A DNA stretch of 64,000 nt from a virus. Its lineage: Duplodnaviria; Heunggongvirae; Uroviricota; Caudoviricetes. The notes beneath the pieces are model-generated. The model was not told the DNA's origin and did no database searches. It was given only the letters and a program-made list of their open reading frames with translations. The stretch lies in the IMG/VR virus record IMGVR_UViG_3300033069_001366, positions 47,108-111,107 of that record; one strand, 5' to 3'. Shown here in pieces: positions 6,201 to 47,293 of the stretch (the stretch's first letter is position 1; each line of letters starts with the position of its first letter). A program made the position numbers and the translations under genes.

Positions 6201-9200
6201 TCTAATTTTACAGCATTGAAATTACTTCTCCATTTTGCTAATTTTTTATTAATACCTCTTCTATTCAGTTCACCTACAGAAGCTACTAATTTATGTTTAT
6301 CAGGATTACGATCATAGTCTACAAATAATTCATAGTTAGTAATATGAGGTAAACTCATAATATTTGTAAATGAATTAATAAATGCAAAGTTTTCAGCATT
6401 ATCAATTTTAGATGATAATGTTTCTAAATCATTAGCAATGAATCTTGCCTGAGGGAATTTTTTAACAAATGCCTCTGATTTAAGTACAAGAATCATATCT
6501 TCAATTGTCCTAGTGTTCTTTAACATTTCTTTTACGTTATTGAACATTGTTTTGGAGTCAACTAATTCTTTAAGTCCTAATTCATTATATTTAAATACAA
6601 AATTTCCATTACTATCAATAGAATCAACTTGAGGTAAAGAAAGAAAATAATCTTTTATTTGCTTGGATGCTTTATCAAAAGCATCCTCATCATTAGCCCC
6701 TTTATTATATGTTGAAGTTTTTTTACTTTCAGTTTCTGAACCTATTTCGTCCATATCTCCATCAATCACTTCTATAAATGTATCATCGAGTTCATTAACT
6801 TCCTTTTCAATATCTTGAATAGTTTTATCTTCTAAAGGAGTAGGATTATTTACAATAATATCACGAAGAGCCTGTATAGAAGACCTTGATAAGTATGCAT
6901 CATAGAATATATTAAAGTTGTTTTCCTCTAAGAGATTATCCATCTCTTTAGCAGTATTTATTCTTTGTCTAACATAATCTATGTTTAAACCATTAATTTT
7001 AGCTGTTCTATTGACTATACTTTCTTCATCATTATTAATAGCATCCATATAGTAAGTATACTTACTTTCAGGATAACTAAATTCTTTTAGTATTTTTTCG
7101 TGAGCATCTTGTAAAGCTCTTCTTACATTACTTTTTAAAGTTTCAGGTCTTTTAAGAACTCTTAAGAAATTAGGAGCTAATCCCATTTTCCTAAGTAGAT
7201 CCGAAACAATACCATCTACAGATTTTATATATAAAGGTATTCTAGAAGGAAGAATAATGTTGTTACCATCCCTATCATAAATCCCTGCATTTAACCCACT
7301 AAACATTACATTAGATACAGACCTAGTATATTTTTCAATAGAGCCATTATAAAGATCATTAAAATATCTTTCTGCTAATGGTCTATAATTAAAAATAAAT
7401 TTAATAAAATCCCAAAGTCTTTGGAAAATACCTTTTATACCTTTATATTTTTCAGGATTTTTAGGGAAACTATATGAAGCAGGATCTTTAGCAAATCTCA
7501 TAAACTCATATGCTAAAAATTCTTCTATTTCCATAAAGGTAGAATCCTTTGTATTTCTTGCATTACCTTTTTCATCAATATAAGGAATAGCTTCTTTTTG
7601 AATAGATGTATATAAAATATTCTTCTGTTCTCTAGTTAAGTATAACTGAGAAAATTCATGCCATCCTTCATGATAAGCCACACCATCTAGGAATCTTTTA
7701 TAGAAAGTTGTACCTTGAGTAGTCCAATAAGCAGCAGTTTTATCATGAACCATTGCAGACAATCTGTACTTAAACTTACCTTTAAACATTCTCTGAACAT
7801 GTTCTAATTGAGGTTTCATTTTCCCCCAATCAATCTCCTCATATCGGTTATTGAAAACCATTTCTAAAGGTTCAACCTCATCTTTATTTCCAAATGTTGG
7901 TTGTTCAGGAATACCAGTATTATTTTCGTCAATCTTAATAGTAGCCTCACGTATACTTTCATATGAAGAAGCTATATTTAGCTGACTTATAGTAAAATCA
8001 TAAGCATAAGTTATTCCTAATACAGTTTTACCTCTGTATATATCTGGTAGATCAGATTCTTTTAAATCTATATAATCTACATTTAAATTACTTGGTGCAA
8101 CAGGTAGTAAATTATTATCATTTTGTGCTTTTAATACAGTAGTATATGTAAAATTAATAAGAGTTGAAATAGGGTCTACACTGAACCCTGCTTTCTTTAA
8201 AGACTCTCTATAAATATGAAGCTGAGTAGCGTAATTCTCAAGTTTTGTTATATTACCATATTTTCCAGGTTTTGTAAGTTTATCTGAAGTTACCTTTACA
8301 TCAAATACTTTTACATTTCCATTTTTATCAATACCTATAACATCCACCTCACCATGCGTAAATCTTTCTGTATTAAATTCCATAAATGTTTTTACTGCAG
8401 GGATAAGGTAATACTCGTCAGATAACTGGTCTATTATATTTTGAAAGTTTTTAATATACCTAGTCAAAGTATCTGCAGTCATTATAGAGCTAAGTTTAAC
8501 TTTAGAGTTACCTACTATAAACTGGGTATCTAAATTTGGAATTTCTCCATTAGTTACCATCTTAAATATTTCATCTACTGCAGTACCTAAATTTATATAA
8601 ATATTAGGATCAAGTGATTTTATTTCTTCAAAAGGTCTAACTATATTACTAGCACGGAATCTTGCCTTACCAGCTTTATTTGCAAAAGTTTGAGCTTGTT
8701 TATGATAAGTTTTAATTTTGTTAGCAACCTCAGTTTGTATAGTAGTTCTGATTATTTCTTTCTTCTCTTCTACTTTTACATAGTTTTCCATTAAAACCTT
8801 CTTAGGCATTTGCTGTCCATCTTCAAGCTCAATAGTATTACCTTTAATAGAAGATACTCTTATTTTTATACTTGGATCTTTTTTAAGTTGATATAGACCT
8901 ACTTCTAGGTTATCTTCATTTACTCCTGAGGTAGGCTCTTTTACATTCTGTACAGATATTAAACCATCTTCATTTAAATCAAGCTTAAAAAGAAGTCTTT
9001 TATTGATTTTAACAAATCTAGTATCACTAGGTCCCACTTTTGCTTTTATAGCTCCTGACCTAAAGTTATTATATAAGAAATTTTGTGCTGAGATTGTTGC
9101 ATTATTACTTAAAGGAATCTTAAGTTCAAATGTATCAAAAAGTCCTCTTGAGTAGTTTATTTCCATATCCCATAAACCACCCCTTCCAGGAACTGATGTA

Positions 9201-34378: not shown

Positions 34379-35208
34379 TTATATTTAAACTTTTTAATAG
34401 GTGAGTAACTTTGTAATTCATTATAAACTAGTTCTAAAAGATTTACATCCTGTTTACAATAATCTATCATTTTTTTCATAGATACTTTACAATTCTTTAG
34501 TACAATATTTTTCCATAAATCTGGTTCAGTTTTAATTTTTTCACCAAGACCTAGGAATTGTCCCATATAATCAAGTTTATTTGAATTAAATTTAAAACCT
34601 GCTCTTGCCATTTTTAAAGTATCTATAGAGTTAAACTTTGGAGAGAGTTCAATTCTATGATATAAACATCTAGTTCTCAACCATTTAATATCAAAAGAAT
34701 CTCCATTTTGAGTAACTGTTTCATCTGCAGAATCTATGATTTTAGCAAATTTTACTAACATTTCATAATCATCTCCATCTTTCCATTGTAAAGATTCTAC
34801 TTTATCAGAATCTGACCATTTCCAACAAATACATATGACCGCCCTTTCTTGTATAATATTTTCATGTGAAAGTTTTATATCTGAACCAATTCTCCAAGAA
34901 GTTACAATATTTGGACTAACCTCTATGTCAAAGAATAGTTTTCTTTTAGGTCTTTCTCTTTCTTTATGTATTAAATTGTAGGTTTCTAATAAGGCAAGAT
35001 CTGATGTAGAATGAATAATTTTATCAGCTTCTCTAAGCTCAGATTGAACACTTTTTACAAGTTCTAGTTCTTTTTGTGCTTCTTTTATAGTTTTAGCAGT
35101 AGTTTTTGGAAGACTTTTCCAAATTGCCTCTAATGTAACATGTGGAGATTTTTTAAGATACCCCTTACGAACCAAAATAAATTTTTCTATTTCCTTTTTA
35201 CTTATCAT
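34363..35208 (-). CDS. DEDDy-type 3'-5' exonuclease (DnaQ/RNase D-like).
   Basis: Exo I LFFDIEVS, Exo II TQNGDSFDIKWL and Exo III YCKQDVNLL motifs are present in the canonical order. Confidence 0.65.
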   Translation of the reverse strand: MISKKEIEKFILVRKGYLKKSPHVTLEAIWKSLPKTTAKTIKEAQKELELVKSVQSELREADKIIHSTSDLALLETYNLIHKERERPKRKLFFDIEVSPNIVTSWRIGSDIKLSHENIIQERAVICICWKWSDSDKVESLQWKDGDDYEMLVKFAKIIDSADETVTQNGDSFDIKWLRTRCLYHRIELSPKFNSIDTLKMARAGFKFNSNKLDYMGQFLGLGEKIKTEPDLWKNIVLKNCKVSMKKMIDYCKQDVNLLELVYNELQSYSPIKKFKYKIPLK

Positions 35209-35830
35209 ATAATTTTTTTATTATTTTCCAATCAAATCCTTTATAAGACTTTCTCTTGCCCTGTATATAATTTCTAGCAGCAGAAGGATAATAACCATTC
35301 TTCTTGGCTTCTTCAAAACTCCAGGTATTTAAAATTTTACCAGTACTTTTACATATTTGTTGAATAAGTTTTTTATTTTTTTCAGATCTTTTAGAGATCA
35401 TAGATTGAGGCTGTTTTTTATTTTTCCAATAGCAATTTCTTTTTAATGAATATGATATTTTCTCTTTATGATCTTCAGAAAATTTTTTACCTTTATTTGA
35501 AATATTTGGAACTGGTAATTCTAATGGAATAGCCATATTATAACCTTTATCTTTTAAATGCGAAGAGTATAATTTAATAAAGAAATTTTCTAATATTACT
35601 GTATGTTCTTCTTTACATATTGCCAATATTTCAAATGTAAAGAAATTCTCGCCATATTTATTAAATGACAACTGAAGATGTGTATTGAAATGAATATTAT
35701 TTTTTAATTTTAAAAAATGGGACCTTTTTCTACTATATAATGTTTTTGTAGTACTACCGATATATACCTTATTATTTTTTAAGTTTGTAATTTTATAAAC
35801 TCCACATCTTTTTAAATCTGAATCTATCAT
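35198..35830 (-). CDS. GIY-YIG homing endonuclease (210 aa).
   Basis: N-terminal GVYKITNLKNNKVYIGSTTKTLYSRKRSHF is the GIY-(10-11)-YIG...R...H signature. The C-terminus is basic, as expected for a DNA-binding region. Confidence 0.7.
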   Translation of the reverse strand: MIDSDLKRCGVYKITNLKNNKVYIGSTTKTLYSRKRSHFLKLKNNIHFNTHLQLSFNKYGENFFTFEILAICKEEHTVILENFFIKLYSSHLKDKGYNMAIPLELPVPNISNKGKKFSEDHKEKISYSLKRNCYWKNKKQPQSMISKRSEKNKKLIQQICKSTGKILNTWSFEEAKKNGYYPSAARNYIQGKRKSYKGFDWKIIKKLYDK

Positions 35831-35929
35831 AATACAAAATTATGAAAAAGTATTCATATAAAAAAATAATTTTTTACATTAATTATTGAAGTAAACAATA
35901 TTTAATCATTAGATGATAAAAAGAAAAAG

Positions 35930-36002
35930 TGGGATAGGGAGTACTCGAAACTCACGAGCCTACGTTTTACAGACGTTGCTAAGTGCCCTGCTTTCTATCC
36001 CA
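35930..36002 (-). tRNA. tRNA, probable Tyr(GUA), class-I-like with imperfect stems.
   Basis: Acceptor GGGATAG/CTATCCC. Anticodon arm ACGT-CTGTAAA-ACGT. T-loop TTCGAGT. Confidence 0.45.
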
Positions 36003-36011
36003 TTGATTATG

Positions 36012-36096
36012 AGGAGAGTACAAGATTCGAACTCTTGCGACTTTTACATCTTCTGTTTAGCAAACAGAACAGTTTACCAATTCCTGCAACTCTCCA
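36012..36096 (-). tRNA. tRNA-Ser(GCU), class II.
   Basis: Acceptor GGAGAGT/ACTCTCC. Anticodon arm TCTGT-TTGCTAA-ACAGA. Long variable arm. T-loop GTTCGAA. Confidence 0.65.
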
Positions 36097-36100
36097 TTTG

Positions 36101-36187
36101 AGGCAAGGGTGGGATTCGAACCCACGGGACTTTTACATCACACAGGCTTTCAAAGCGAGGCTCTTATGACCACTTGAGCACCTTACC
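36101..36187 (-). tRNA. Class-II tRNA, probably Ser(UGA).
   Basis: Acceptor GGTAAGG/CCTTGCC. T-arm GTGGG-TTCGAAT-CCCAC. Anticodon loop TTTGAAA, but the anticodon stem has two mismatches. Confidence 0.5.
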
Positions 36188-36191
36188 ATTG

Positions 36192-36265
36192 TAGTCTAGG
36201 TGAGATTCGAACTCACAAACATAAAATTTTAAGTTTTATAGCTTTCCCAGTTAGCTTACTAGACC
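36192..36265 (-). tRNA. tRNA with anticodon UAA (Leu-type) but class-I architecture.
   Basis: Acceptor GGTCTAG/CTAGACT with discriminator A. D-arm AGCT-AACTGGGAA-AGCT. Anticodon arm TAAAA-CTTAAAA-TTTTA. Variable loop of 5 nt. T-arm GTGAG-TTCGAAT-CTCAC. Confidence 0.6.
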
Positions 36266-36270
36266 ATTTG

Positions 36271-36356
36271 TAGGGATGGAGAGATTCAAACTCTCACGCC
36301 AGTTTATTAACACTAGATCCTAAGTCTAGGGTGTCTATCAATTCCACCACATCCCC
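36271..36356 (-). tRNA. tRNA-Leu(UAG), class II.
   Basis: Acceptor GGGGATG/CATCCCT. Anticodon arm CTAGA-CTTAGGA-TCTAG. Long variable arm. T-loop TTTGAAT. Confidence 0.65.
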
Positions 36357-36361
36357 AAAAA

Positions 36362-36390
36362 GAAAAACCCCACCAAAATTGGCAGGGTTT
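36362..36390 (-). terminator. Terminator-like hairpin with a U-tract on the minus strand.
   Basis: In minus sense: CCCTGCC-AATTTTGG-TGGGG followed by TTTTTCT. Confidence 0.35.
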
Positions 36391-36489
36391 TATTGTAAAC
36401 AATATAATTATTTTTAAACAATATAATCCCTGCTCTTACTTTGTAAGAGATACGATAAGGAACTATATAGTTTGTTATTTTTCATGATG

Positions 36490-36521
36490 CAAATATAGTA
36501 TAATAATTTACAAAAACCAAA
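36490..36521 (-). promoter_or_regulatory. Candidate Bacteroidetes-type promoter upstream of tRNA cluster 1 (-33 TTTG and -7 TAnnTTTG).
   Basis: Minus sense reads TTTG, then 20 nt, then TATATTTG, directly downstream of the tailspike stop codon. Confidence 0.25.
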
Positions 36522-36527
36522 TTTATT

Positions 36528-38327
36528 TTAAACATCTATTAAAAATCCCTGATTATTATAACTTATAGTCTGAGAGTATTTTATATTTCCATAACTATCT
36601 ACTACTTTAATTCTAAAAGTATTAATGGTTAAACTTAATTTGATATCCCTACAGTTAGATGCTGTAGTACTATAACCACCAGGAATAGTGTAAATAGTTG
36701 TAAATACATTATTTGTCATTCTTTCAATATATTTTACTACAGGTACATTTGTATTTATATTCCAACAAATATTTGAAACTCTTCTTCTTGGTAATGTTCC
36801 TGATAAAGAAATAGTTCCTTGAATAGGTTCATTTATAGTTGTAGTCGTAGTTGTACTAGAACTTGTAGTTGTAGTTGTTGAACTAGTGGTAGTTGTACTA
36901 CTTGTTGATGTTGTTGATGTACTTGAAGTAGTAGTTGTTGTAGTAGGAACTAAAGTTGTAGTTGTAGTTGTACTTGTACTTGAAGTAGAAGTTGTACTTG
37001 TACTACTTGTACTTGAAGTAGAACTTGTAGTAGTTGTTGTACCAGCAACATATTCTAAAATACCTATTTCAGGAGGATTACTAACAGCAACACCTGCAAA
37101 ATCTACAGAGTACCCCACATTTGTTCCTGCATTTATTAATACACTGCCAACTAAAGGAGAGAAGTTCCAATCTTTTGCATTTCCTGAAGTTGAGGTCCAA
37201 AAGTTAGCACTTGTTACAATCTCACTAGGGTTTGCTGTAATATTTAATAATGAACCTGTTCCTGATGTATTTAATTTGTATACATTATTTTCATGAATAA
37301 GAGTAGTATTATTCCACTGTGCTCTATAGACATCTACAGTACCATATAATTGAAATATATTATTCTTTACAGTTAAAGTAGCTGCTGTAGTAGGAGTGCT
37401 CTTATATCCTATCATTGCATTACTTGATACTCTAAATGGTTGAGTTTCGACAATAACATTATTAAGTATACTTGTATTAATTACATTTGTAGCAAAAGTG
37501 CCTGAATTACTCACATACATAAAAGACCCATTATTTGTACATTTATTGTATGCTAATACAGTTCCGGTTACAGTACGTCCACCTGAACCACCAATTTCAA
37601 TAACACCATTGCAATCATTAAAACTATTGTATGCTATAAGGTTATTACTACAATCTACATCAGCGTAAATATCTACTGCTCCACCATCATATTCATAATC
37701 ATATGAATCTGCCCAACACCCTTCAAATATATTATTTGTAATAATATTATTAGAAGAAGATATAATTACACCATTAGCACCATAGTCATCATCATTTCCG
37801 GGAGGCGGACCATCTTTGGTGTTTTTAATCATCCTCATATTCTGTACTGTAGAATATGTAAAAGTTGTATTATCACCAGTAGTATACAACGCACAACCAG
37901 TTCTATCAAAATTACATCTTGTAATAGTAATATTAGTAGATGAATCTGGAACAATAGCTCTTTGAATTTTTGCCTGTATTGTTCTATCTACTGCAGATAT
38001 AGACTCATCTACTATAGTCCAGTCTTGCAGTGTAATATATGATCTATTATACATAGATATAAGAACATTAATAGATGCACCTGTACCTAATAATTTAGGT
38101 TGTGCCCCTGTTCCATATGCACCAAAAATAATTCTTGCTGATGAATTACCAGATCTTGTTATATTTAGAGTTCCTGAATAACTCTGTCCTCTTTTTAATA
38201 AGACTTGGTCTCCAGGTTGAAGTAAACTCATATTTGAATTTACATTTGATAGAGACTTCCAAGGTGTATTTATACCACCATTAGATGTTGAACCAGTGTA
38301 ACTGGAATCTACGTAATATATTGCCAT
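36528..38327 (-). CDS. Tailspike or receptor-binding protein (599 aa) with a right-handed beta-helix (pectate-lyase-like), a Ser/Thr linker and a C-terminal domain.
   Basis: Repeated NNxIxNN and CxNNG turns (NNIITNNIFEGC, SNNLIAYNSFNDCNG, YNKCTNNGSF). A 70-aa S/T-only linker is followed by a roughly 100-aa C-terminal domain. Confidence 0.65.
   Translation of the reverse strand: MAIYYVDSSYTGSTSNGGINTPWKSLSNVNSNMSLLQPGDQVLLKRGQSYSGTLNITRSGNSSARIIFGAYGTGAQPKLLGTGASINVLISMYNRSYITLQDWTIVDESISAVDRTIQAKIQRAIVPDSSTNITITRCNFDRTGCALYTTGDNTTFTYSTVQNMRMIKNTKDGPPPGNDDDYGANGVIISSSNNIITNNIFEGCWADSYDYEYDGGAVDIYADVDCSNNLIAYNSFNDCNGVIEIGGSGGRTVTGTVLAYNKCTNNGSFMYVSNSGTFATNVINTSILNNVIVETQPFRVSSNAMIGYKSTPTTAATLTVKNNIFQLYGTVDVYRAQWNNTTLIHENNVYKLNTSGTGSLLNITANPSEIVTSANFWTSTSGNAKDWNFSPLVGSVLINAGTNVGYSVDFAGVAVSNPPEIGILEYVAGTTTTTSSTSSTSSTSTTSTSSTSTTTTTTLVPTTTTTTSSTSTTSTSSTTTTSSTTTTTSSSTTTTTTINEPIQGTISLSGTLPRRRVSNICWNINTNVPVVKYIERMTNNVFTTIYTIPGGYSTTASNCRDIKLSLTINTFRIKVVDSYGNIKYSQTISYNNQGFLIDV
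36838..37040 (-). repeat. Low-complexity tandem codon repeats encoding the Ser/Thr linker of the tailspike.
   Basis: Plus-strand gtagttgta/acttgtagt-type units are repeated many times. Confidence 0.7.
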
Positions 38328-38892
38328 TTTTATACTTTTATTATAATATACTAAATATTTCTGATATTACCAAACACACCTCCGTTTATCCCTGCAAGTA
38401 GGGTTTCTATCTTCAAGCATTTAGATAGACTCATCTAACCTAAAACTCCCGTGTCCCTGTGCCTCATCTTTTCACCATGTAGGCTGTTGATTATGAGGAC
38501 TTTATATTTTCACGGAGGAATGTATTTTAGCCTACTTGGTTTTTTCTTGCAGGTACAAGTTGTCACGGATAGACATTGCTTGATATTTATACATCCTATC
38601 GTATGAATTAGTTACTTTCATACTAGTTTTAATAGATAACTTTTATTGTGCTAAAGGATAAAAGTTGGAAAAAACCTTTTGGCAAAAATAAGGGATATTA
38701 GTCAAAATAAAAAATCCTTCTATTTCTAGAAGGACTTTCTATTCCGTGACAATGATGCCTATAAAAACCAAGGCAAAAATACAACTTTTCTTTTTTCTTC
38801 CAAAATTTATTTTGTGGAGATGAAGATAATCGAAATCTTCTCAAATAGTTTGCAAAACTACTTCGCCAGCCTTGGAACATGCACCCCCTTAG

Positions 38893-38965
38893 TTGACTTG
38901 GTGAGTAACGATCTCACTACCTTTACATTATCAGTGTAACGCTCTACCATTTGAGCTACAAGTCA
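38893..38965 (-). tRNA. tRNA-Ile(GAU).
   Basis: Acceptor TGACTTG/CAAGTCA. D-arm GCTC-AAATGGTA-GAGC. Anticodon arm TTACA-CTGATAA-TGTAA. T-arm GTGAG-ATCGTTA-CTCAC. Confidence 0.65.
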
Positions 38966-39501
38966 TTATTAATTATTTGAAAATGTATCTCTGCATGACA
39001 ATTTTTACACACTAAAATACATTTATCTAATTCAGACTTTAAGTTTTGAAAACTTTTAGTTCCACCACTTATAGTATAATCTTTTTTATTAGGATCAATA
39101 TGATGAAATTCTAAAGCAGCAAGACATTTATTATATCCACATTTACAACATTTCCCTCCTTTATATTCTACACATTGTTCTTTTACTTTTAACCTATAGC
39201 CTTTTTTTCTTTTGTCAGCTTTTTGTTTAATTTGAAGTTTTGTAAGTTTTCTTGCTTTTAATTTTTTACCTAATAATTGTCTTGATACTTTAAATTTATC
39301 AGCAACACCTTTAAAAGATAATCCTTGATCATAAGCATCCTGATATATTTTTAATAATTCAGGTGTATATTTATCAACTTTGTTAATAAATTTTGAACAA
39401 TGATAACTTACTGTTGATTTAGAGCATCTTAACTGTTTAGATATTTCAGCAGAACTAAATCCTTTATGAAAAAGTTCCAAAATTTTTGTCTTTTTAACCA
39501 T
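38956..39501 (-). CDS. HTH-HNH homing endonuclease (181 aa).
   Basis: N-terminal HTH-like segment (SSAEISKQLRCSKSTVSYH). C-terminal EFHHIDPNKKD...LVCKNCHAEIH HNH motif with Cys pairs. Confidence 0.65.
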   Translation of the reverse strand: MVKKTKILELFHKGFSSAEISKQLRCSKSTVSYHCSKFINKVDKYTPELLKIYQDAYDQGLSFKGVADKFKVSRQLLGKKLKARKLTKLQIKQKADKRKKGYRLKVKEQCVEYKGGKCCKCGYNKCLAALEFHHIDPNKKDYTISGGTKSFQNLKSELDKCILVCKNCHAEIHFQIINNDL

Positions 39502-39561
39502 TATTGTATACTTTATATATACAATATAAGATAAAAGTTCGAATTTATCAAATTTATTTTG

Positions 39562-39638
39562 TACTGATGATTAGATTCGAACTAATGTGTAACCAACTAC
39601 CTTTTCAACTGGATATAAGCCAGAGAGGATACATCAGC
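39562..39638 (-). tRNA. tRNA-like element, non-canonical and a possible pseudo-tRNA; identity unresolved.
   Basis: Acceptor GCTGATG/CATCAGT and a good T-arm ATTAG-TTCGAAT-CTAAT. The body has only one clean stem-loop (CTGG-CTTATAT-CCAG) and no standard D-arm. Confidence 0.3.
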
Positions 39639-39641
39639 ATG

Positions 39642-39716
39642 TCGCCTATCACGGATTCGAACCGAGGATCTTTCCTTAGACAGAGGAACAGGGACGACCA
39701 ACTCCCCTAATAGGCG
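39642..39716 (-). tRNA. tRNA-Asp(GUC).
   Basis: Anticodon arm TTCCT-CTGTCTA-AGGAA. D-arm GGGG/CCCT. T-loop TTCGAAT with one U-U pair in the T-stem. Confidence 0.6.
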
Positions 39717-39720
39717 TTAG

Positions 39721-39794
39721 TACCATGTATGGGATTCGAACCCATGAATAACACCGTGAAAGAGTGTTGACCTAGACCGCTAGTCAAACATGGC
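39721..39794 (-). tRNA. tRNA-Glu(UUC).
   Basis: Acceptor GCCATGT/ACATGGT. Anticodon arm ACACT-CTTTCAC-GGTGT. T-arm ATGGG-TTCGAAT-CCCAT. Confidence 0.65.
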
Positions 39795-39797
39795 ATG

Positions 39798-39871
39798 TGC
39801 AGTAGACAAGACTCGAACTTGCAAACCTCCGACTTGGAAGGACGGCATTCTACCAATTGAACTACTACTGC
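39798..39871 (-). tRNA. tRNA-Gly(UCC).
   Basis: Acceptor GCAGTAG/CTACTGC. Anticodon loop CTTCCAA, with one U-U in the stem. T-arm GCAAG-TTCGAGT-CTTGT. Confidence 0.55.
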
Positions 39872-39994
39872 AGGTTTAGGTTTTTGTACGCCCGATAGAA
39901 CCTATTAACTATGTGTACTTTACGATTACACTCTTCATTTGAGCTTGAATCAGAGGCTTAAGAGGGACTACGACACTGTGTACATCAGTAACAC

Positions 39995-40459
39995 TTATTT
40001 ATATACAGAAGGGTGTCTTATGACGTGATCTGCAGCCTTACATGCTATCATTTCTCCAGTTTTAAAAGTTGAGTTTGCATAACCTTTAAACGCAGAAACT
40101 AATTTAGAACTTATAGTTTTCTTTGCATCTGCAAAATCAAATTCCAAAGCTTTAACAGCAATAGGGATATCTTGAGTCAAAGTATCATGTATTTCAAGAG
40201 TTCTTAATCCTTCTCCATATAATCTTGTAAATTGACTAAAATCTTTTATTCTTGATACAACTTCTTTTAAGTAAATAAAATGAGCACCTCTTCTTCCATA
40301 TCTATAAGCTATACAAGTTACATAAACGGTATCTTGTCCCCAGTCTTGACTATCTGTTCCGATAGATATTTCTAGATGATTGAATTTTTCAATCTGATCT
40401 AGCGTATGTTCGATGATATTTACTATTTTACCATCTTGTGTCCGAAAATATTTTTCCAT
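39995..40459 (-). CDS. Hypothetical protein (154 aa) embedded in the tRNA array.
   Basis: ORF with no motif I can assign; a segment LEISIGTDSQDWG is noted. Confidence 0.45.
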   Translation of the reverse strand: MEKYFRTQDGKIVNIIEHTLDQIEKFNHLEISIGTDSQDWGQDTVYVTCIAYRYGRRGAHFIYLKEVVSRIKDFSQFTRLYGEGLRTLEIHDTLTQDIPIAVKALEFDFADAKKTISSKLVSAFKGYANSTFKTGEMIACKAADHVIRHPSVYK

Positions 40460-40483
40460 ATTGCAAAGATAGTAATTTTTCTG

Positions 40484-40555
40484 TTGCGAGGGGGAGATTC
40501 GAACTCCCGACTAAAAGGGTATGAGCCTTTTCTGCTACCGCTGCATTACCTCACA
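40484..40555 (-). tRNA. tRNA with CAU anticodon (Met or Ile2).
   Basis: Anticodon arm AAAGG-CTCATAC-CCTTT. T-arm GGGAG-TTCGAAT-CTCCC. Acceptor TGTGAGG/CCTCGCA. Confidence 0.6.
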
Positions 40556-40560
40556 TTATG

Positions 40561-40634
40561 AGGGAAGTAAGGGTGACGATCCCTTCACCTAATGATTAAC
40601 AGTCATTTGCTCTACCAACATGAGCTAACTTCCC
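40561..40634 (-). tRNA. tRNA-Asn(GUU).
   Basis: Acceptor GGGAAGT/ACTTCCC. Anticodon arm AATGA-CTGTTAA-TCATT. Atypical T-loop ATCGTCA. Confidence 0.6.
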
Positions 40635-40676
40635 ACATCTCCTTTTTTAACTCCACGGGGAAAGGTAACCCACCTG

Positions 40677-40750
40677 TATCCTTGGTAAGAATCGAACTTA
40701 CAACTTTTTGCTTAGAAGGCAAATACTCTATCCGTTGAGTTACAAGGACT
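40677..40750 (-). tRNA. tRNA-Arg(UCU).
   Basis: Anticodon arm TTTGC-CTTCTAA-GCAAA. D-arm ACTC/GAGT. T-arm GTAAG-TTCGATT-CTTAC. Confidence 0.65.
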
Positions 40751-40754
40751 TGTG

Positions 40755-40828
40755 TAGAGGATAGGAATTCCGAGATCCTGACTTCTTGTTTGTAATACAA
40801 GCACTCTGCCAACTGAGTTAATCCTCTA
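40755..40828 (-). tRNA. tRNA-Val(UAC).
   Basis: Acceptor AGAGGAT/ATCCTCT. Anticodon arm CTTGT-ATTACAA-ACAAG. T-arm imperfect. Confidence 0.55.
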
Positions 40829-40832
40829 TATG

Positions 40833-40906
40833 TCTCCCCTGAGGGACTCGAACCCACGACTCGTAAATTAAAAGTTTACTACTCTAGCCAACTGAGTTAA
40901 GAGGAG
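40833..40906 (-). tRNA. tRNA-Lys(UUU).
   Basis: Anticodon arm GTAAA-CTTTTAA-TTTAC. D-arm ACTC-AGTTGGCTA-GAGT. T-arm GTGGG-TTCGAGT-CCCTC with one U-U. Confidence 0.65.
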
Positions 40907-40938
40907 AAATAAAAAAGCCCTTCTTTTTGGGAAGGGCT
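40907..40938 (-). terminator. Hairpin with a U-tract (on the minus strand) abutting the 5' end of tRNA-Lys; a terminator or processing signal.
   Basis: agcccttc-tttttgg-gaagggct. On the minus strand it is followed by TTTTTTATTT. Confidence 0.4.
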
Positions 40939-41110
40939 TGTGTATTTTATTTTCTTAACTCTCACTTACAGAAAGACAACACAAACCCTATTGAGTTTCT
41001 ATCCTCAATATTACCTTTCACCATCGCTATGATATTTAAAGATTGCATTTGTGAATGTCTATAACTTTTAATTAGTGCAAATATACAATGTATTTTTTAA
41101 AAATCCAAAT

Positions 41111-41323
41111 TTATTTTTTTGTTCTAAAAAAATATTTTCCGTTTTCTGCTTTTTCTATTTTCTTATGAACTTTTCTTAGTATTCTAGGGACCTTTTTGCC
41201 TATATATACTCTTCTAGTCCCAAGAGTTATTTGTTCTAATGACTCTTGAAACATTATATAACCACCAACTCCAGTATAAAGTGTGATATTTCTCATACTA
41301 CAAAGATATATATTTTTGACCAC
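41111..41323 (-). CDS. Small hypothetical protein (70 aa) with a Lys-rich C-terminus.
   Basis: ORF between tRNA clusters; weak support. Confidence 0.3.
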   Translation of the reverse strand: MVKNIYLCSMRNITLYTGVGGYIMFQESLEQITLGTRRVYIGKKVPRILRKVHKKIEKAENGKYFFRTKK

Positions 41324-41389
41324 TTTATCTGATTCGAACAGATAATTTTTGATCCGTAGTCAAAGGTTATTTCCAGTTTAACTAAAAGT
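41317..41389 (-). tRNA. tRNA-Arg(ACG).
   Basis: Acceptor CCACTTT/AAAGTGG. Anticodon arm TTTGA-CTACGGA-TCAAA. T-arm ATCTG-TTCGAAT-CAGAT. Confidence 0.65.
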
Positions 41390-41396
41390 GGTTTAC

Positions 41397-41469
41397 AGGG
41401 TGATTAAAGGGACTCGAACCCTCACATAATACAGCCACAATGTACCGCTCTACCATTAAGCTATAACCA
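41397..41469 (-). tRNA. tRNA-His(GUG) with an encoded G-1 and C73.
   Basis: Anticodon arm GTACA-TTGTGGC-TGTAT. Extra 5' G pairs with discriminator C. D-arm GCTT-AATGGTA-GAGC. Confidence 0.7.
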
Positions 41470-41471
41470 CC

Positions 41472-41544
41472 AGATCCAATACTAGGGTTCGAACCTAGAA
41501 TCTACTGAATCAAAGTCAGTCGGGTTACCAATTACCCCATATTG
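41472..41544 (-). tRNA. tRNA-Gln(UUG).
   Basis: U1-A72 acceptor pair TCCAATA/TATTGGA. Anticodon arm ACTGA-CTTTGAT-TCAGT. T-arm CTAGG-TTCGAAC-CCTAG. Confidence 0.65.
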
Positions 41545-41567
41545 GAATTTTTCTTCATCCAGTATCC

Positions 41568-41638
41568 TGCACCTCGTACCCTAATCGAAAAGGTTCCAAG
41601 AGGTTTGGAAGCTCTTGTGCTACCATTACACCAACGAG
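41568..41638 (-). tRNA. tRNA-Trp(CCA).
   Basis: Acceptor ACCTCGT/ACGAGGT. Anticodon loop TTCCAAA, with a C-C at the 31-39 pair. T-arm ACCTT-TTCGATT-AGGGT. Confidence 0.55.
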
Positions 41639-41643
41639 GTATC

Positions 41644-41717
41644 TGTGGTAACTCTCAGGTTCGAACTGAGTTAGTCTGTTCTTCAAACAGATGCATTGAC
41701 CAACAATTGCTTAGTTA
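41644..41717 (-). tRNA. tRNA-Phe(GAA).
   Basis: Acceptor GGTAACT/AGTTACC with A73. Anticodon arm TCTGT-TTGAAGA-ACAGA. T-arm CTCAG-TTCGAAC-CTGAG. Confidence 0.7.
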
Positions 41718-41723
41718 CCTTTT

Positions 41724-41797
41724 AGATCCTCCTGAGTTACTCGAAAACTCTCTATTTCTGCTTACAAGGCAGACGCAGCACCATATCTGCATAGGAG
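41724..41797 (-). tRNA. tRNA-Thr(UGU).
   Basis: D-arm GCAG-ATATGGTG-CTGC. Anticodon arm TCTGC-CTTGTAA-GCAGA. T-arm GAGTT-TTCGAGT-AACTC. G1-A72 mismatch. Confidence 0.6.
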
Positions 41798-41803
41798 GCA
41801 TTT

Positions 41804-41879
41804 AGAGTCCATAGTTGGATTTGAACCAACGGTTTTACAATTTTGCAGATTGTTGCTTTTGACCTCTCAGCCATATGGA
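41804..41879 (-). tRNA. tRNA-Cys(GCA).
   Basis: Acceptor GTCCATA/TATGGAC with U73. Anticodon arm ACAAT-CTGCAAA-ATTGT. T-arm GTTGG-TTCAAAT-CCAAC. Confidence 0.65.
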
Positions 41880-41883
41880 CCTA

Positions 41884-42022
41884 TGTGGCAATGAATGGAT
41901 TCGAACCATCTATTTTATAACTTAGTCGCTTAAATTATTCAATCTTTTGTGTCAGGTAGACAGAGGACGATTCTGCATGATGTCCACATCCCAAATGTGG
42001 CGGCTTACCAATTAGCCCACTA
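41884..42022 (-). tRNA. Interrupted tRNA-Pro(UGG)-like gene. The 5' half (acceptor, D-arm, anticodon arm) and the 3' half (T-arm, acceptor) are separated by an insertion of about 70 nt; it may be a pseudogene or an intron-containing tRNA.
   Basis: 3' half: GATGG-TTCGAAT-CCATT plus CATTGCC. 5' half: GGTAGTG (which pairs with CATTGCC through two G-U wobbles), D-arm GGCT-AATTGGTA-AGCC, and a perfect anticodon arm CCACA-TTTGGGA-TGTGG. Confidence 0.3.
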
Positions 42023-42498
42023 CCTGTTTTATGCTTTATTGTATGACAATTACAACAAAGTAGTTGTAAGTTATCAAGATTATTATTTTTTCTATTTCTA
42101 TCTTTATGATGAACTTCTAAAGCTAAAGGGTTATCAAAATTACATTCCTCACATTTTAATTCCTTCATTGATTTTATCTTTATCCATCTATAACTACCTA
42201 TACCAGTTTTATATTGAGGATGATTTTCCCATTTTTTAAAAAGAGTATTGTTTTTTATAGTCGAACACTTTTTACTACAATATAAATTTCCTGTTTTAGA
42301 CCTTTTAATTCTACTAGGAGTAACTATCAAATCTTTACCACAATTTGCACATTTATAATTATATTCTTTTGCTTTTCCTATATGCTTACATTCATTTGAA
42401 CAATAAATTTTCCAATCTTTTTTGATACTAAAATTTATATATTTCTCTTCCTTTTCAAATTTAGATTTACAAACAGGACATATTAAACTTACTTTCAT
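41935..42498 (-). CDS. Zn-finger HNH homing endonuclease (187 aa) whose 3' end overlaps the 5' half of the interrupted tRNA-Pro-like gene.
   Basis: Motif EVHHKDRNRKNNNLDNLQLLCCNCH, which is the HNH signature. Multiple CxxC pairs. Confidence 0.65.
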   Translation of the reverse strand: MKVSLICPVCKSKFEKEEKYINFSIKKDWKIYCSNECKHIGKAKEYNYKCANCGKDLIVTPSRIKRSKTGNLYCSKKCSTIKNNTLFKKWENHPQYKTGIGSYRWIKIKSMKELKCEECNFDNPLALEVHHKDRNRKNNNLDNLQLLCCNCHTIKHKTGSGLIGKPPHLGCGHHAESSSVYLTQKIE

Positions 42499-42587
42499 AC
42501 TACTAATATAGTAAAAAGTTTTCGAACTTCCAAATTTATTTTTATCCCAAAGCTAGTGGGAAAAACCTGACTTCCCTACATCGCCAT

Positions 42588-42616
42588 AAAATAAAAAACC
42601 CTCATGTTATTGAGGG
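42588..42616 (-). terminator. Bidirectional rho-independent terminator-like hairpin.
   Basis: ccctca-tgttat-tgaggg, flanked by an A-run on plus (a T-run on minus) and TTTGTGTAT. Confidence 0.45.
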
Positions 42617-42731
42617 TTTGTGTATGAATCGGAAAAAATAAAAGCTTACTTTTTAATACATATACATAGACCCTCGCAGATGCCAAATGGACACTGGGTT
42701 GTGGGTTGCCATGTATGTGTAAAGTTATTTT

Positions 42732-42965
42732 TCATAAAATTAAGTCTTTGATCTTATCAAAATTTTTACCTATAAAAAATCCTAAAAGGATTCCAAATAT
42801 AAACCACATATTTTTATTTTTTAGGTTTGGGTTTAGGTTTTCCACAGCCACAAGCCATAGTAATCTGTTTTGGAATACAAATATACGAAATGTTTTTATA
42901 TTTTCCAAATTTATTTTAAAAAAAGACCCTTGAGAACAAGGGTCAAAACTTTTTACAGAAACCAA
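42732..42965 (-). CDS. Possible small membrane protein; probably only the C-terminal transmembrane peptide MWFIFGILLGFFIGKNFDKIKDLIL is real.
   Basis: ORF with a hydrophobic C-terminal helix; weak support. Confidence 0.25.
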   Translation of the reverse strand: MVSVKSFDPCSQGSFFKINLENIKTFRIFVFQNRLLWLVAVENLNPNLKNKNMWFIFGILLGFFIGKNFDKIKDLIL

Positions 42966-42981
42966 GAAAACTGCAAGTTTA

Positions 42982-43971
42982 TTATATGTTAGGATGAATT
43001 ATTACTCCTTCAAAATTTACTACAATTTGTTTTGATGTAGCATTTATAAAAGCTGATTGGAATTCTAAGATAAGATTTGTTCCATTCTTTCTTACAATAT
43101 AACCATATTGTTGAGTTATTTGATCTCCAGTTCCAGGTTGGTCTATATAGTTAATAGATTTTAGGTCTGCTGTACCAAGAAGTTCCGCTGCAGAAACACC
43201 ACATCCAGTTGCTAAAGCAGTTATTGTAGAAATATTTCCTACAGTAACAGTTCTTTTTCTAGTTCCAGCAAGATCACTATATGCTCCAAAATTTACAGTA
43301 TATGTTGCAGAACCTTTAAATTCTATAGTTCCATCAAATCTTACTCTATATTTAGGAGTACCAGATACATAAACTACATTTGCATTTCCTGTAGCTGTTA
43401 ATGTAACATCTCTCCAAACTCCATCAAAGCACTTTCTTGTTGCTGTAATAGAAGGATTAATTGATACTATAAATGGATCTGTTGCAGGACCTGTACCTGT
43501 TACAGTGACTCCTGTACCACCTTGTACATACATATTTATAGTAGGGGTTGGAGGAATTGCTCTTAATTTTCCATCTGTACCTATTTCAAGATAGTTTCCA
43601 CTATCGGCTGAAATAAGTGAAGCTGGAGCTACATTAAATCTTATTTTTTCATTTAATCCAGGATTCAAGACTGTTTTAGTCATGAAGTTTCCTACTAATA
43701 ATTTGTTATTTAGATAATCTGCAGTATCATCTGATGATGAAACTTTTGCATATATATCTGAACCACTTGGTGGAGTAGGAATATCAAGATTTGCAATAAG
43801 AGTATCAAGAGCTTCTAAAACTTGAAGCCCATTCATATCATTTGTAATACCAAGAGCTGAATGAACACCAGGAAGTGTTATGCACTCAAAAGTAGTTGGG
43901 TTTAAACAACCACAATTATCATAGCTATTTTCAGAACAAGGATTACAAGGTGTATTTTCTAAACAAGACAT
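42982..43971 (-). CDS. Tail-fibre-like protein (329 aa) with a Cys-rich N-terminal module.
   Basis: N-terminus CLENTPCNPCSENSYDNCGCLNPTTFEC. Gly/Thr-rich beta-rich body (VQGGTGVTVTGTGPATDP). Confidence 0.5.
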   Translation of the reverse strand: MSCLENTPCNPCSENSYDNCGCLNPTTFECITLPGVHSALGITNDMNGLQVLEALDTLIANLDIPTPPSGSDIYAKVSSSDDTADYLNNKLLVGNFMTKTVLNPGLNEKIRFNVAPASLISADSGNYLEIGTDGKLRAIPPTPTINMYVQGGTGVTVTGTGPATDPFIVSINPSITATRKCFDGVWRDVTLTATGNANVVYVSGTPKYRVRFDGTIEFKGSATYTVNFGAYSDLAGTRKRTVTVGNISTITALATGCGVSAAELLGTADLKSINYIDQPGTGDQITQQYGYIVRKNGTNLILEFQSAFINATSKQIVVNFEGVIIHPNI

Positions 43972-46761: not shown

Positions 46762-47293
46762 TTGAATATTGTTCTAATAAAGATTTTGCAAAATCATACA
46801 ACTCTTTACCTTTTACTTTATCTAAAGATTCTTCAACTTTCCACTTTGCAGCAAGAGCAAACTCCTCAATATCTCTGAGTTTATCTCTATTAGCAATATA
46901 TTCCTTTTGGGAAAGTTTGCAAGTATTATCTATAAGTTTATCTTTTTCGGTATTAATTTTATTAATTAATTCAACAATTCTAAAATGATAGTAGTGTTGA
47001 ACACTATAAATATTTGGTTTTATAGATTGTTTTATTTCATAAATACCATCTGGTAAGTCCATTAGGTCTTCAGCTTTATTTACCTTTTTATACTGTAAAT
47101 TAGATGCATTTAAGACTAATGAGAAATTCTTACTTACATGAAAAGTATACCAGTTTGTTTTATTTACTGGTAGAACCTCAATTAAGTAATTTTCTACTGT
47201 TTGATTATTATAATAAAAAGAGGTATCAAATAACCTCATAACCTTTGGATTATTACTATTTGAAACCTCTAAAGATAATTCTGTTGTAATCAC
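46745..47293 (-). CDS. Hypothetical protein (182 aa), possibly a fibre-assembly or chaperone protein.
   Basis: ORF immediately downstream of the terminator and upstream of the fibre genes. Confidence 0.4.
   Translation of the reverse strand: MITTELSLEVSNSNNPKVMRLFDTSFYYNNQTVENYLIEVLPVNKTNWYTFHVSKNFSLVLNASNLQYKKVNKAEDLMDLPDGIYEIKQSIKPNIYSVQHYYHFRIVELINKINTEKDKLIDNTCKLSQKEYIANRDKLRDIEEFALAAKWKVEESLDKVKGKELYDFAKSLLEQYSNECKC

Follow-up and report, generated by a model that had tools for sequence, protein, structure and literature searches.

A resident tRNA-Pro gene in a phage tRNA array probably broken by an HNH endonuclease cassette that carries its own tRNA-Pro

The window analyzed here is a stretch of 64,000 nt from a tailed phage (Caudoviricetes; IMG/VR record IMGVR_UViG_3300033069_001366, positions 47,108 to 111,107) that carries a phage tRNA array, in which 20 tRNAs were called by ARAGORN within 36011-42026. 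At the head of this array an open reading frame (ORF) for an HNH endonuclease is found together with an intact tRNA-Pro(UGG) and with two separated fragments of a second tRNA-Pro. This arrangement is probably best explained by a free-standing HNH homing-endonuclease cassette that was inserted in a resident tRNA-Pro(UGG) gene, carried with it a replacement tRNA-Pro of a different type, and left both halves of the resident gene as relics. The anatomy itself (relics that are parts of one gene, an intact cassette tRNA, a conserved gene order in relatives, and recent exchange of the block) is held with high confidence. All features of the locus lie on the minus strand, and positions are those of the window (Table 1).

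The orphan 3' half consists of the T-arm GATGG-TTCGAAT-CCATT (41910-41894), the acceptor strand CATTGCC (41893-41887), and a discriminator A (41886). When searched alone, it gave a 5'-truncated match to the Rfam tRNA model (17.3 bits, E = 0.072). No tRNA 5' part able to complete a cloverleaf was found within normal tRNA length of it, in agreement with a first-pass annotation of the window, which had described a tRNA 3' half at 41884-41912 without a nearby 5' partner. The 41 nt that separate the orphan half from the intact tRNA-Pro are an AT-rich spacer. The matching 5' half lies on the other side of the HNH ORF at 42585-42545, and reads GGCGATG-TA-GGGA-AGTCAGGTTTT-TCCC-A-CTAGC-TTTGGGA. It comprises the acceptor strand GGCGATG, U8-A9, A26, the 5' strand of the anticodon stem (CTAGC), and the Pro (TGG) loop TTTGGGA, and it stops exactly at anticodon-loop position 38. 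It adjoins a terminator, 10 nt downstream of 42619-42596, and directly precedes the promoter region of the HNH gene. The 5' relic was found through a relaxed ARAGORN flag at 42506-42588; the low-threshold ‘tRNA-Ala(agc)’ reported there was rejected as spurious, its T-arm being the AAGTT-CGAA-AACTT hairpin of the promoter region.

The acceptor strand GGCGATG (42585-42579) pairs with CATTGCC of the orphan half at 7/7 positions (6 Watson-Crick pairs and 1 G-U pair), a quality matched by 15 of the 127,986 7-mers in the window (frequency 1.2e-4). Joined in silico, the 5' half and the orphan half form a canonical tRNA-Pro(tgg) cloverleaf according to ARAGORN, which accepted 318 of 567 variants of the junction. 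ARAGORN is permissive on artificial joins, and it accepted the join implied by the first-pass annotation as well; a sliding control and an analysis of covariation were added. In the control, each 41-mer of the window, on both strands, was placed ahead of the orphan half and submitted to ARAGORN. Besides the genuine tRNA 5' halves, 4-6 loci in about 128,000 positions were called, and 42585 was among them, in register and with a Pro anticodon.

Covariation was assessed against an uninterrupted homologue, L028, which came out of a scan of metagenome contigs with the D-arm of that 5' half. L028 has an intact tRNA-Pro(TGG) at 1486-1561, the 5' part of which reads ACAGTAG-TA-GGGA-AGTCAGGTTTT-TCCC-A-CTTGC-TTTGGGA and the 3' part GCAAG-AGAGC-ATAGG-TTCAAAT-CCTGT-CTACTGT-A. 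Over positions 8-38, the 5' half in the window and the L028 gene are identical at 30 of 31 nucleotides, and the 3' halves of the two show loose similarity only. Acceptor pairs, counted by hand from the sequences for L028 and for the cross-combinations, were 7/7 within L028, 7/7 between the window relic and the orphan, and 2-3/7 in the cross-combinations. Five acceptor-stem positions were changed on both strands relative to L028, which shows that the two fragments in the window evolved as a single acceptor stem. In L028 a terminator hairpin is followed, after about 12 nt, by the intact type-D tRNA-Pro, which is the layout expected of an uninvaded site. On these comparisons, the orphan 3' half and the 5' half at 42585-42545 are parts of one broken resident tRNA-Pro gene. 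Exact-pattern searches for either relic half in IMG/VR returned no match, nor did an exact-pattern search for the orphan 3' half in GTDB genomes.

The tRNA-Pro inside the cassette is a contiguous cloverleaf of 75 nt. Its first part reads CAGGTAG-TG-GGCT-AATTGGTA-AGCC-G-CCACA-TTTGGGA-TGTGG and the remainder ACATCAT-GCAGA-ATCGTCC-TCTGT-CTACCTG-A. The Rfam tRNA model (RF00005) matched it over positions 1-71 of 71 with 45.5 bits, against a gathering score of 29. ARAGORN called tRNA-Pro(tgg) at 41951-42026 with default settings and likewise with intron detection (-i, -i0,200), which reported no split tRNA gene at the locus. The acceptor stem CAGGTAG/CTACCTG is paired at 7/7 positions, all Watson-Crick, the D, anticodon, and T stems have 4, 5, and 5 bp, U8 is present, and the discriminator is A. 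The T-arm GCAGA-ATCGTCC-TCTGT is non-canonical: A53-U61, A54, and U58 depart from the conserved pattern (T54, psi55, C56, R57, and A58, with closure by G53-C61), and U55, C56, and G57 are kept. The tRNA-Pro of L001, an unrelated IMG/VR contig, shares a 48-nt core with this tRNA without any difference. Relative to L001-L003, compensatory changes were seen at acceptor pair 2:71 and at T-stem pair 53:61 (G-C to A-T), with pairing preserved, and positions 54 and 58 were swapped jointly. These changes indicate that the 3' part of the tRNA-Pro has been under structural selection and is no insertion. The loop ATCGTNN is common to three tRNAs of the cluster (Ile 38892-38965, ATCGTTA; Asn 40560-40634, ATCGTCA; Pro 41952-42026, ATCGTCC), so that it looks like a lineage-specific variant rather than decay. 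Judged by its sequence and pairing, the cassette tRNA-Pro is therefore structurally selected and probably functional, with a lineage-specific T-loop, and no pseudogene.

The first-pass annotation had read this region otherwise, as a tRNA-Pro with its 5' half at about 41966-42022 and the orphan as its 3' half, with about 70 nt inserted between the two in the variable loop and representing either a pseudogene or a tRNA with a non-canonical intervening sequence. The D-arm GGCT-AATTGGTA-AGCC and the anticodon arm CCACA-TTTGGGA-TGTGG are present as it had described them. The acceptor strand that it proposed, GGTAGTG, can be paired with CATTGCC (5 Watson-Crick pairs and 2 G-U pairs), ARAGORN calls a tRNA-Pro on that artificial join, and the T-loop of the contiguous gene (ATCGTCC) is indeed unusual. 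The GGTAGTG register, however, leaves no nucleotides 8-9 and forces a D-stem of 3 bp, whereas the contiguous gene has its own 7-bp acceptor, U8, and 5-bp T-stem, a full-length Rfam match, and compensatory changes in its acceptor and T stems; the ATCGTNN loop recurs in tRNA-Ile and tRNA-Asn, and the orphan has the better partner at 42585. Covariance models and intron-aware ARAGORN thus describe a single contiguous canonical tRNA, with a reservation for its T-loop, and a split gene at about 41966-42022 is hardly credible. The suggestion of a disruption associated with a homing endonuclease was right in spirit, but the disrupted gene is the resident tRNA-Pro (42585-42545 and 41910-41886), the cassette copy being intact, and the insertion is larger by far than the 70 nt proposed and lies in that second, resident gene.

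Measured between the resident halves, the insertion is about 623-634 bp long (42544 to 41911-41922). Its left end is at about 42544 and its right junction falls within 41911-41922, with an uncertainty of about 11 nt. The insertion point corresponds to positions 38|39 of the resident tRNA-Pro, directly after the anticodon loop. GTTAT (41921-41917) could be the decayed 3' strand of the resident anticodon stem, since it forms 4/5 pairs with CTAGC. The insertion contains, in order, a promoter-like element, the HNH ORF, the intact tRNA-Pro, and a spacer of 30-41 nt.

Table 1. Positions of the parts of the HNH/tRNA-Pro locus in the window
Feature	Position	Strand	Sequence or basis
Intrinsic terminator hairpin	42596..42619	-	AAACCCTCA-ATAACA-TGAGGGTTT and T-rich tail
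5' half of the broken resident tRNA-Pro(TGG), "type D"	42545..42585	-	L028 homology and join tests
Promoter-like element, Bacteroidota type	42503..42534	-	-33 TTTG, 20-nt spacer, -7 TATATTAG
HNH endonuclease ORF, 187 aa	41935..42498	-	Pfam, PHROG
Intact contiguous tRNA-Pro(UGG), "type C" / "Pro_d"	41952..42026	-	Rfam, ARAGORN
Spacer, right end of the putative inserted cassette	41911..41951	-	Intact tRNA-Pro to orphan half
Orphan 3' half of the resident tRNA-Pro	41886..41910	-	Truncated Rfam tRNA match, acceptor pairing

The promoter-like element has TTTG at 42534-42531 and TATATTAG at 42510-42503, directly upstream of the HNH ATG. Its type was assigned from the published Bacteroidetes consensus (-33 TTTG / -7 TAnnTTTG). 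The arrangement TTTGGAAGTTCGA...TAnnTTTG stands ahead of every HNH homologue, and in L018, L019, and L020 the TAnnTTTG is perfect. The window is enriched in the motif, which occurs 10 times where 2.1 matches were expected (0/100 shuffles reached 10). By sequence, the element is a candidate Bacteroidota-type promoter of the HNH gene. The terminator, of which 1 was found against 0.6 expected, closes the transcription unit of the small upstream ORF, 10 nt ahead of the 5' relic. Equivalent hairpins stand ahead of the HNH slot in L016, L018, L019, L020, and L023, and ahead of the type-D tRNA-Pro of L028. The small upstream ORF is Cys-rich (MKNNFTHTWQPTTQCPFGICEGLCICI-like, about 42650-42733, minus strand) and lies just upstream of the terminator; it occupies the same position in L008, L016, L018, L019, L020, and L023, and is annotated as a 37-aa gene in some of the loci.

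In another account of the locus, a functional tRNA-Pro would have the two flanking halves as its exons and, in its anticodon arm, a giant intron of about 630 nt, with the HNH gene and a nested tRNA inside, removed by self-splicing or by another pathway. The two halves do fit together as one tRNA, and conservation extends to the whole unit with both halves, which moves as a block that ends at the tRNA ends. HNH genes are also common in phage group I introns, and the anticodon loops of bacterial tRNAs are classic group I insertion sites. Nevertheless, focused Rfam searches of 35500-43000, 41870-42060, and 41870-42610 gave no group I or group II intron family at E <= 10, and only about 160 nt of the insertion is non-coding, of which 75 nt is the nested tRNA. 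A terminator stands 10 nt upstream of the 5' half, and the sole recognizable promoter is inside the supposed intron. In the anticodon stem the 3' strand is either absent or degenerate (4/5 pairs at best), the related locus L008 carries an uncompensated change from CTAGC to CTACA that would leave 2/5 pairs, and in L016 any 3' exon is lacking. A giant intron is thus very improbable, and the same points (no intron family, upstream terminator, internal promoter, an anticodon-stem 3' strand not recognizably kept, and the change in L008) speak against the non-canonical intervening sequence of the first-pass annotation.

In the product of the HNH ORF, two CxxC...CSxxC zinc-finger modules are accompanied by an HNH domain (residues 116-157). 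The domain matched Pfam HNH (PF01844) over profile positions 1-46 of 47 with E = 9.9e-6 and 26 bits (cut-off 21.4), and PHROG HNH endonuclease families matched the ORF with E down to 7e-15. The catalytic H/N/H columns showed no variation, and H130, H131, N143, H152, and H156 were invariant among 15 homologues. No solved structure related to the ORF by sequence was found. A 45-nt stretch of the ORF (42066-42110) is 89% identical to annotated HNH homing endonuclease genes of T5-like phages; apart from this match and generic tRNA matches, a blastn search of GenBank phages with 41300-43000 revealed no relatives.

Codon 158 of the ORF starts 1 base ahead of the 5' end of the tRNA-Pro, and codons 158-187 consist of the tRNA-Pro and 14 nt of spacer. 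The read-through that the first-pass annotation had reported is hence confirmed from codon 158 onward, with the correction that the whole tRNA, and not its 5' half only, is overlapped. Among homologues (35 matches, 45-98% identity, mostly 160-164 aa), the protein terminates 6-9 residues past the last HNH histidine. In all loci examined (L016, L018, L019, L020-22, and L023), the ORF runs into the 5' end of a tRNA-Pro(TGG), where a TAA or TAG in the D-loop stops it. In the tRNA type found in the window these stop triplets are out of frame, and the ORF therefore continues to 41935, with 30 extra codons. Reading through the tRNA is therefore a family-wide overlap that is extended in the copy in the window.

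A second HNH ORF of an unrelated family (38956-39501, minus strand, 181 aa) has an N-terminal HTH, a C-terminal HNH, and a similar upstream motif, and it likewise terminates in a tRNA, with a TAG located within the 5' end of tRNA-Ile(GAT) at 38892-38965. Directly upstream of this ORF, at 39562-39638, is an odd tRNA-like element of 77 nt (Rfam, 30.6 bits). Its acceptor stem and T-arm are good and its anticodon hairpin is Ile(TAT)-like, but the internal arms are in scrambled order.

In all relatives the order is the same: the Cys-rich ORF, the terminator, an optional relic, the promoter, the HNH gene, tRNA-Pro, and then Thr/Cys/Phe/Trp/Gln/His. The HNH homologues (45-77% identity) always follow the terminator and precede an overlapping tRNA-Pro that heads the array. 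A 5' relic of another type, type B, was found in L016, where it reads CTAGGTG-TA-GCTC-AGATTAGGTA-GAGC-G-CGGCA-TTTGGAA and likewise breaks off directly behind the anticodon loop. Its sequence is similar to that of the intact tRNA-Pro in L019 and L023, and it has no 3' partner. Downstream of it come the same promoter, then an HNH homologue (51% identity), then an intact tRNA-Pro. In L020 a 16-nt stub occupies the relic position. The two independent relics, type D in the window and type B in L016, share the same breakpoint and both abut the HNH promoter, and it is chiefly they that point, indirectly, to a break in the anticodon arm.

The identical 187-aa HNH protein was found on 12 contigs from several samples. 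The window and L008 have 0 differences in 659 bp that comprise the promoter, the HNH gene, the tRNA-Pro, the spacer, and the orphan half, as against 47 differences in 175 bp (27% diverged) in the upstream flank and 2 in the 41 nt of the 5' relic, where L008 has the uncompensated change from CTAGC to CTACA in the anticodon stem. Downstream of the block no homology was found between the two, tRNA-Cys following in the window and tRNA-Thr in L008, and homology among the window, L008, and L026 stops within 5 nt of the 3' end of the orphan half. L026 and L027 are mosaics: upstream their flank is window-like, downstream it resembles that of L008, and inside the block they diverge by about 1%, with 2 substitutions in the spacer (41911-41951). 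The block has moved recently between phage backgrounds. Nuclease genes have been reported to mark boundaries of genetic exchange in phages (PMC10448857), and the block boundary at the 3' end of the broken tRNA fits this general pattern. Purifying selection on the relics was considered and is not claimed, 0 substitutions in 66 nt being uninformative with three haplotypes at about 1% divergence.

Several observations nevertheless weigh against insertion of a cassette into the resident gene. All retrieved phages of the family hold an HNH homologue in the same slot, including three lineages without a relic (L018, L019, and L023), and no sibling genome with an uninterrupted type-D tRNA-Pro was found, the sole analogue of an empty site, L028, belonging to a different phage. 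In L029 a type-D 5' relic, cut within the anticodon stem, adjoins another tRNA-Pro, which is intact, with no HNH gene between them. The 5' half in the window, when searched alone, gave no match to the Rfam tRNA model, so that its identity rests on the L028 homologue and on the join tests. Neither the variable loop of the resident tRNA nor the 3' strand of its anticodon stem is cleanly recognizable, which makes this no clean cut-and-paste event, and the non-canonical T-loop of the cassette tRNA-Pro (A54, U58, and A53-U61) leaves its function uncertain. Finally, the target of the HNH enzyme is a putative one, derived from the relic breakpoints. Two candidates were set aside in this comparison: L004, an IMG/VR phage whose neighbouring 329-aa protein is 59% identical, was rejected as an empty site because it has no tRNA cluster, and the 265-aa zinc-finger ORF that follows the intact tRNA-Pro of L029 is not claimed as a nuclease (E = 0.13 against the HNH protein in the window and no Pfam family).

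The constant presence of the HNH gene, also where relics are absent, means that it may be an old, vertically inherited resident of the array head and that the relics may come from ordinary array recombination, that is, from illegitimate or short-homology exchanges between heterologous tRNA arrays in which tRNA-Pro modules are swapped. The 45-77% identity of the homologues in the slot is compatible with this, as is L029, where the relic abuts another tRNA-Pro directly. The tRNA order also varies between relatives (Cys-Thr or Thr-Cys), which shows shuffling of modules, and the promoter (TTTGGAAG) has a second copy of the anticodon-loop TTTGG, which could have provided microhomology. The junctions do not use this microhomology, however, and AAATAAA between the copies is retained. 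It would also have to be accepted that the type-D and the L016 type-B relics were broken at the same position, each abutting the HNH promoter, by independent events, and a 100% identical block centred on the HNH gene between backgrounds diverged by 27% is a signature of endonuclease-driven exchange (PMC10448857, PMC2330249). Array recombination is a real rival, though the less probable one, as the origin of the relics, and insertion of the HNH cassette is preferred.

The target of the HNH enzyme, its homing, and the consequences for its expression are inferred. The enzyme would cut tRNA-Pro genes of co-infecting phages that lack the HNH gene, in or near the anticodon arm, and repair off the HNH-bearing genome would copy the cassette into the cut site. 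As the cassette supplies a replacement tRNA-Pro, the invasion would be without cost to the phage. The 5' relic lies between the terminator and the cassette promoter and is on that account probably unexpressed; judging from this layout, the working tRNA-Pro of the phage is probably the cassette copy. The HNH gene and the tRNA array would probably be co-transcribed from the cassette promoter. Since the HNH stop codon lies inside the tRNA (beyond it in the window), the 5' cut by RNase P would leave a non-stop HNH message, and such a message would hold expression of the endonuclease low.

A bolder proposal, which is put forward tentatively and is on balance doubtful, would see in these loci a tRNA-Pro-specific ‘break-and-replace’ homing family that cuts the anticodon arm of the tRNA-Pro(UGG) of rivals, installs a cleavage-resistant tRNA-Pro, and keeps a brake on its HNH gene through RNase P. 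If true, this would be the first homing endonuclease with a spare copy of the RNA gene that it destroys and the first case in which tRNA maturation directly controls a selfish gene. It is a matter of speculation that ATCGTNN T-loops might shield tRNA genes from SegB-like, T-psi-C-directed endonucleases; under the same proposal, their recurrence in the array might add a layer of immunity against endonucleases of tRNA genes.

Further observations were made on the array and on those of other contigs. In the window, default ARAGORN overlooked three likely tRNAs on the minus strand: tRNA-Val(TAC) at 40755-40827 (Rfam, 46 bits; T-loop CTCGGAA), tRNA-Ala(TGC) at 38814-38884 (a G3:U70 pair, a weak D-arm, an ARAGORN call only at ps85, and no Rfam match), and tRNA-Tyr(GTA) at 35931-36005 (an ARAGORN call at ps85 only). 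When these candidates are counted, the array serves all 20 amino acids. The tRNA-Thr at 41725-41799 was called by ARAGORN and is absent from the Rfam listing of the region. Inside the array is an ORF of 599 aa (36528-38327, minus strand), the N-terminal region of which resembles a pectate lyase or beta-helix and which also has a long linker of low complexity rich in Ser/Thr (TTTTSSTSSTSS...); it probably encodes a tail fibre or depolymerase, an unusual cargo in the middle of a tRNA cluster. At the opposite end of the array from the HNH cassette, a GIY-YIG ORF (35198-35830, minus strand, 210 aa; Pfam GIY-YIG, E = 3e-10; weak SegE-like match) adjoins a gene resembling a DNA polymerase exonuclease, and the window holds at least three putative homing endonuclease genes in total.

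The endonuclease content of tRNA arrays differs widely between close relatives. L005 has an additional HNH_2 gene at 8008-8559, between tRNA-Asn and tRNA-Met, the end of which overlaps the tRNA-Met that follows (8550-8637), and L020 has NUMOD4/HNH_3 and one further HNH gene (2193-2633 and 3668-4027). In L001, the stretches 4158-4277, 4310-4375, and 4570-4648 are tRNA-like without an ARAGORN call. Among them are what looks like a tRNA interrupted internally by a long insertion (GTGGATG...GTTCGAATCGAGCTCCACCCAC) and a tRNA-Asp-like gene just ahead of a zinc-finger ORF, upstream of which the same TTCGAAC-type motif occurs.

For annotation, the locus is a trap: an orphan tRNA half beside an intact tRNA mimics a split or intron-containing tRNA and is really the scar of a larger insertion. 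If the preferred explanation holds, endonuclease genes remodel phage tRNA arrays gene by gene, a resident tRNA-Pro having been destroyed and replaced here and the resulting unit exchanged between diverged phages. An ORF that always ends in the downstream tRNA would also set tRNA processing and translation of the endonuclease in competition for one transcript. Should the target be confirmed, the enzyme would be a new sequence-specific nuclease directed against a tRNA gene and a possible tool.

The closest known system is SegB of phage T4, a free-standing GIY-YIG homing endonuclease encoded in the T4 tRNA gene cluster, which cuts the tRNA genes of phages that lack SegB (PMC2330249). SegB is inherited together with neighbouring tRNA genes and displaces the tRNA markers of the recipient (PMC2330249; reviewed in PMC2988022); it recognizes a T-psi-C stem-loop motif at the 3' end of tRNA genes, and homing endonuclease genes in phage tRNA clusters have rarely been observed (PMC2330249). 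Like SegB, the HNH gene in the window is free-standing, has its own (predicted) promoter, and lies inside a phage tRNA array, and homing of the SegB kind would leave a footprint like the identical block seen across diverged backgrounds. The two differ in the enzyme (GIY-YIG in SegB, HNH with zinc fingers here) and in the site, as SegB lies between tRNA genes and has a T-psi-C target, whereas the breakpoints in the window follow the anticodon loop. Unlike SegB, moreover, the HNH ORF overlaps the downstream tRNA, and the resident tRNA is split with both halves kept. The phage that carries the element is known from metagenomes only.

Endonuclease insertions that split phage protein genes have been described for mobE in nrdA of Aeh1, mobA in gene 39/60 of T4, and seg43(25) in gene 43 (PMC2988022). 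In these, as in the window, a free-standing endonuclease gene sits inside another gene, with pieces of it on both flanks; the protein pieces reassemble, whereas here the gene encodes an RNA, there is no sign of rejoining, and a complete replacement copy would supply the function. Group I introns share with the locus an insertion in the anticodon arm, an endonuclease ORF, and flanking ‘exon’ halves that move along with it, but the window shows no detectable intron core, has a promoter inside and a terminator upstream of the 5' half, does not retain the 3' strand of the anticodon stem, and holds a second tRNA that is complete. Integrative elements directed at tRNA genes also enter such a gene and bring tRNA sequence that keeps a functional gene; they do so with an integrase and the 3' part of the same tRNA (duplicated in attP) and leave no broken gene, whereas the locus in the window has no integrase, a complete tRNA of a different type, and a resident gene in two apparently dead halves. 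T5-like phages, too, have HNH genes among their tRNA genes, a relation that rests on the 45-nt match of 89%. The HNH enzymes of T5 have been described as nicking endonucleases, and we know of no split tRNA or overlap of an ORF with a tRNA in T5.

A search of the full-text literature found no description of a tRNA gene split in such a way, which is weak evidence of novelty. The locus would extend the SegB paradigm to an HNH family in phages that probably infect Bacteroidota. Compared with SegB and with the split protein genes, the locus differs in its HNH enzyme, in a tRNA gene that is split into halves which appear dead, in a complete replacement tRNA with the same anticodon, and in an ORF that always ends inside that tRNA.

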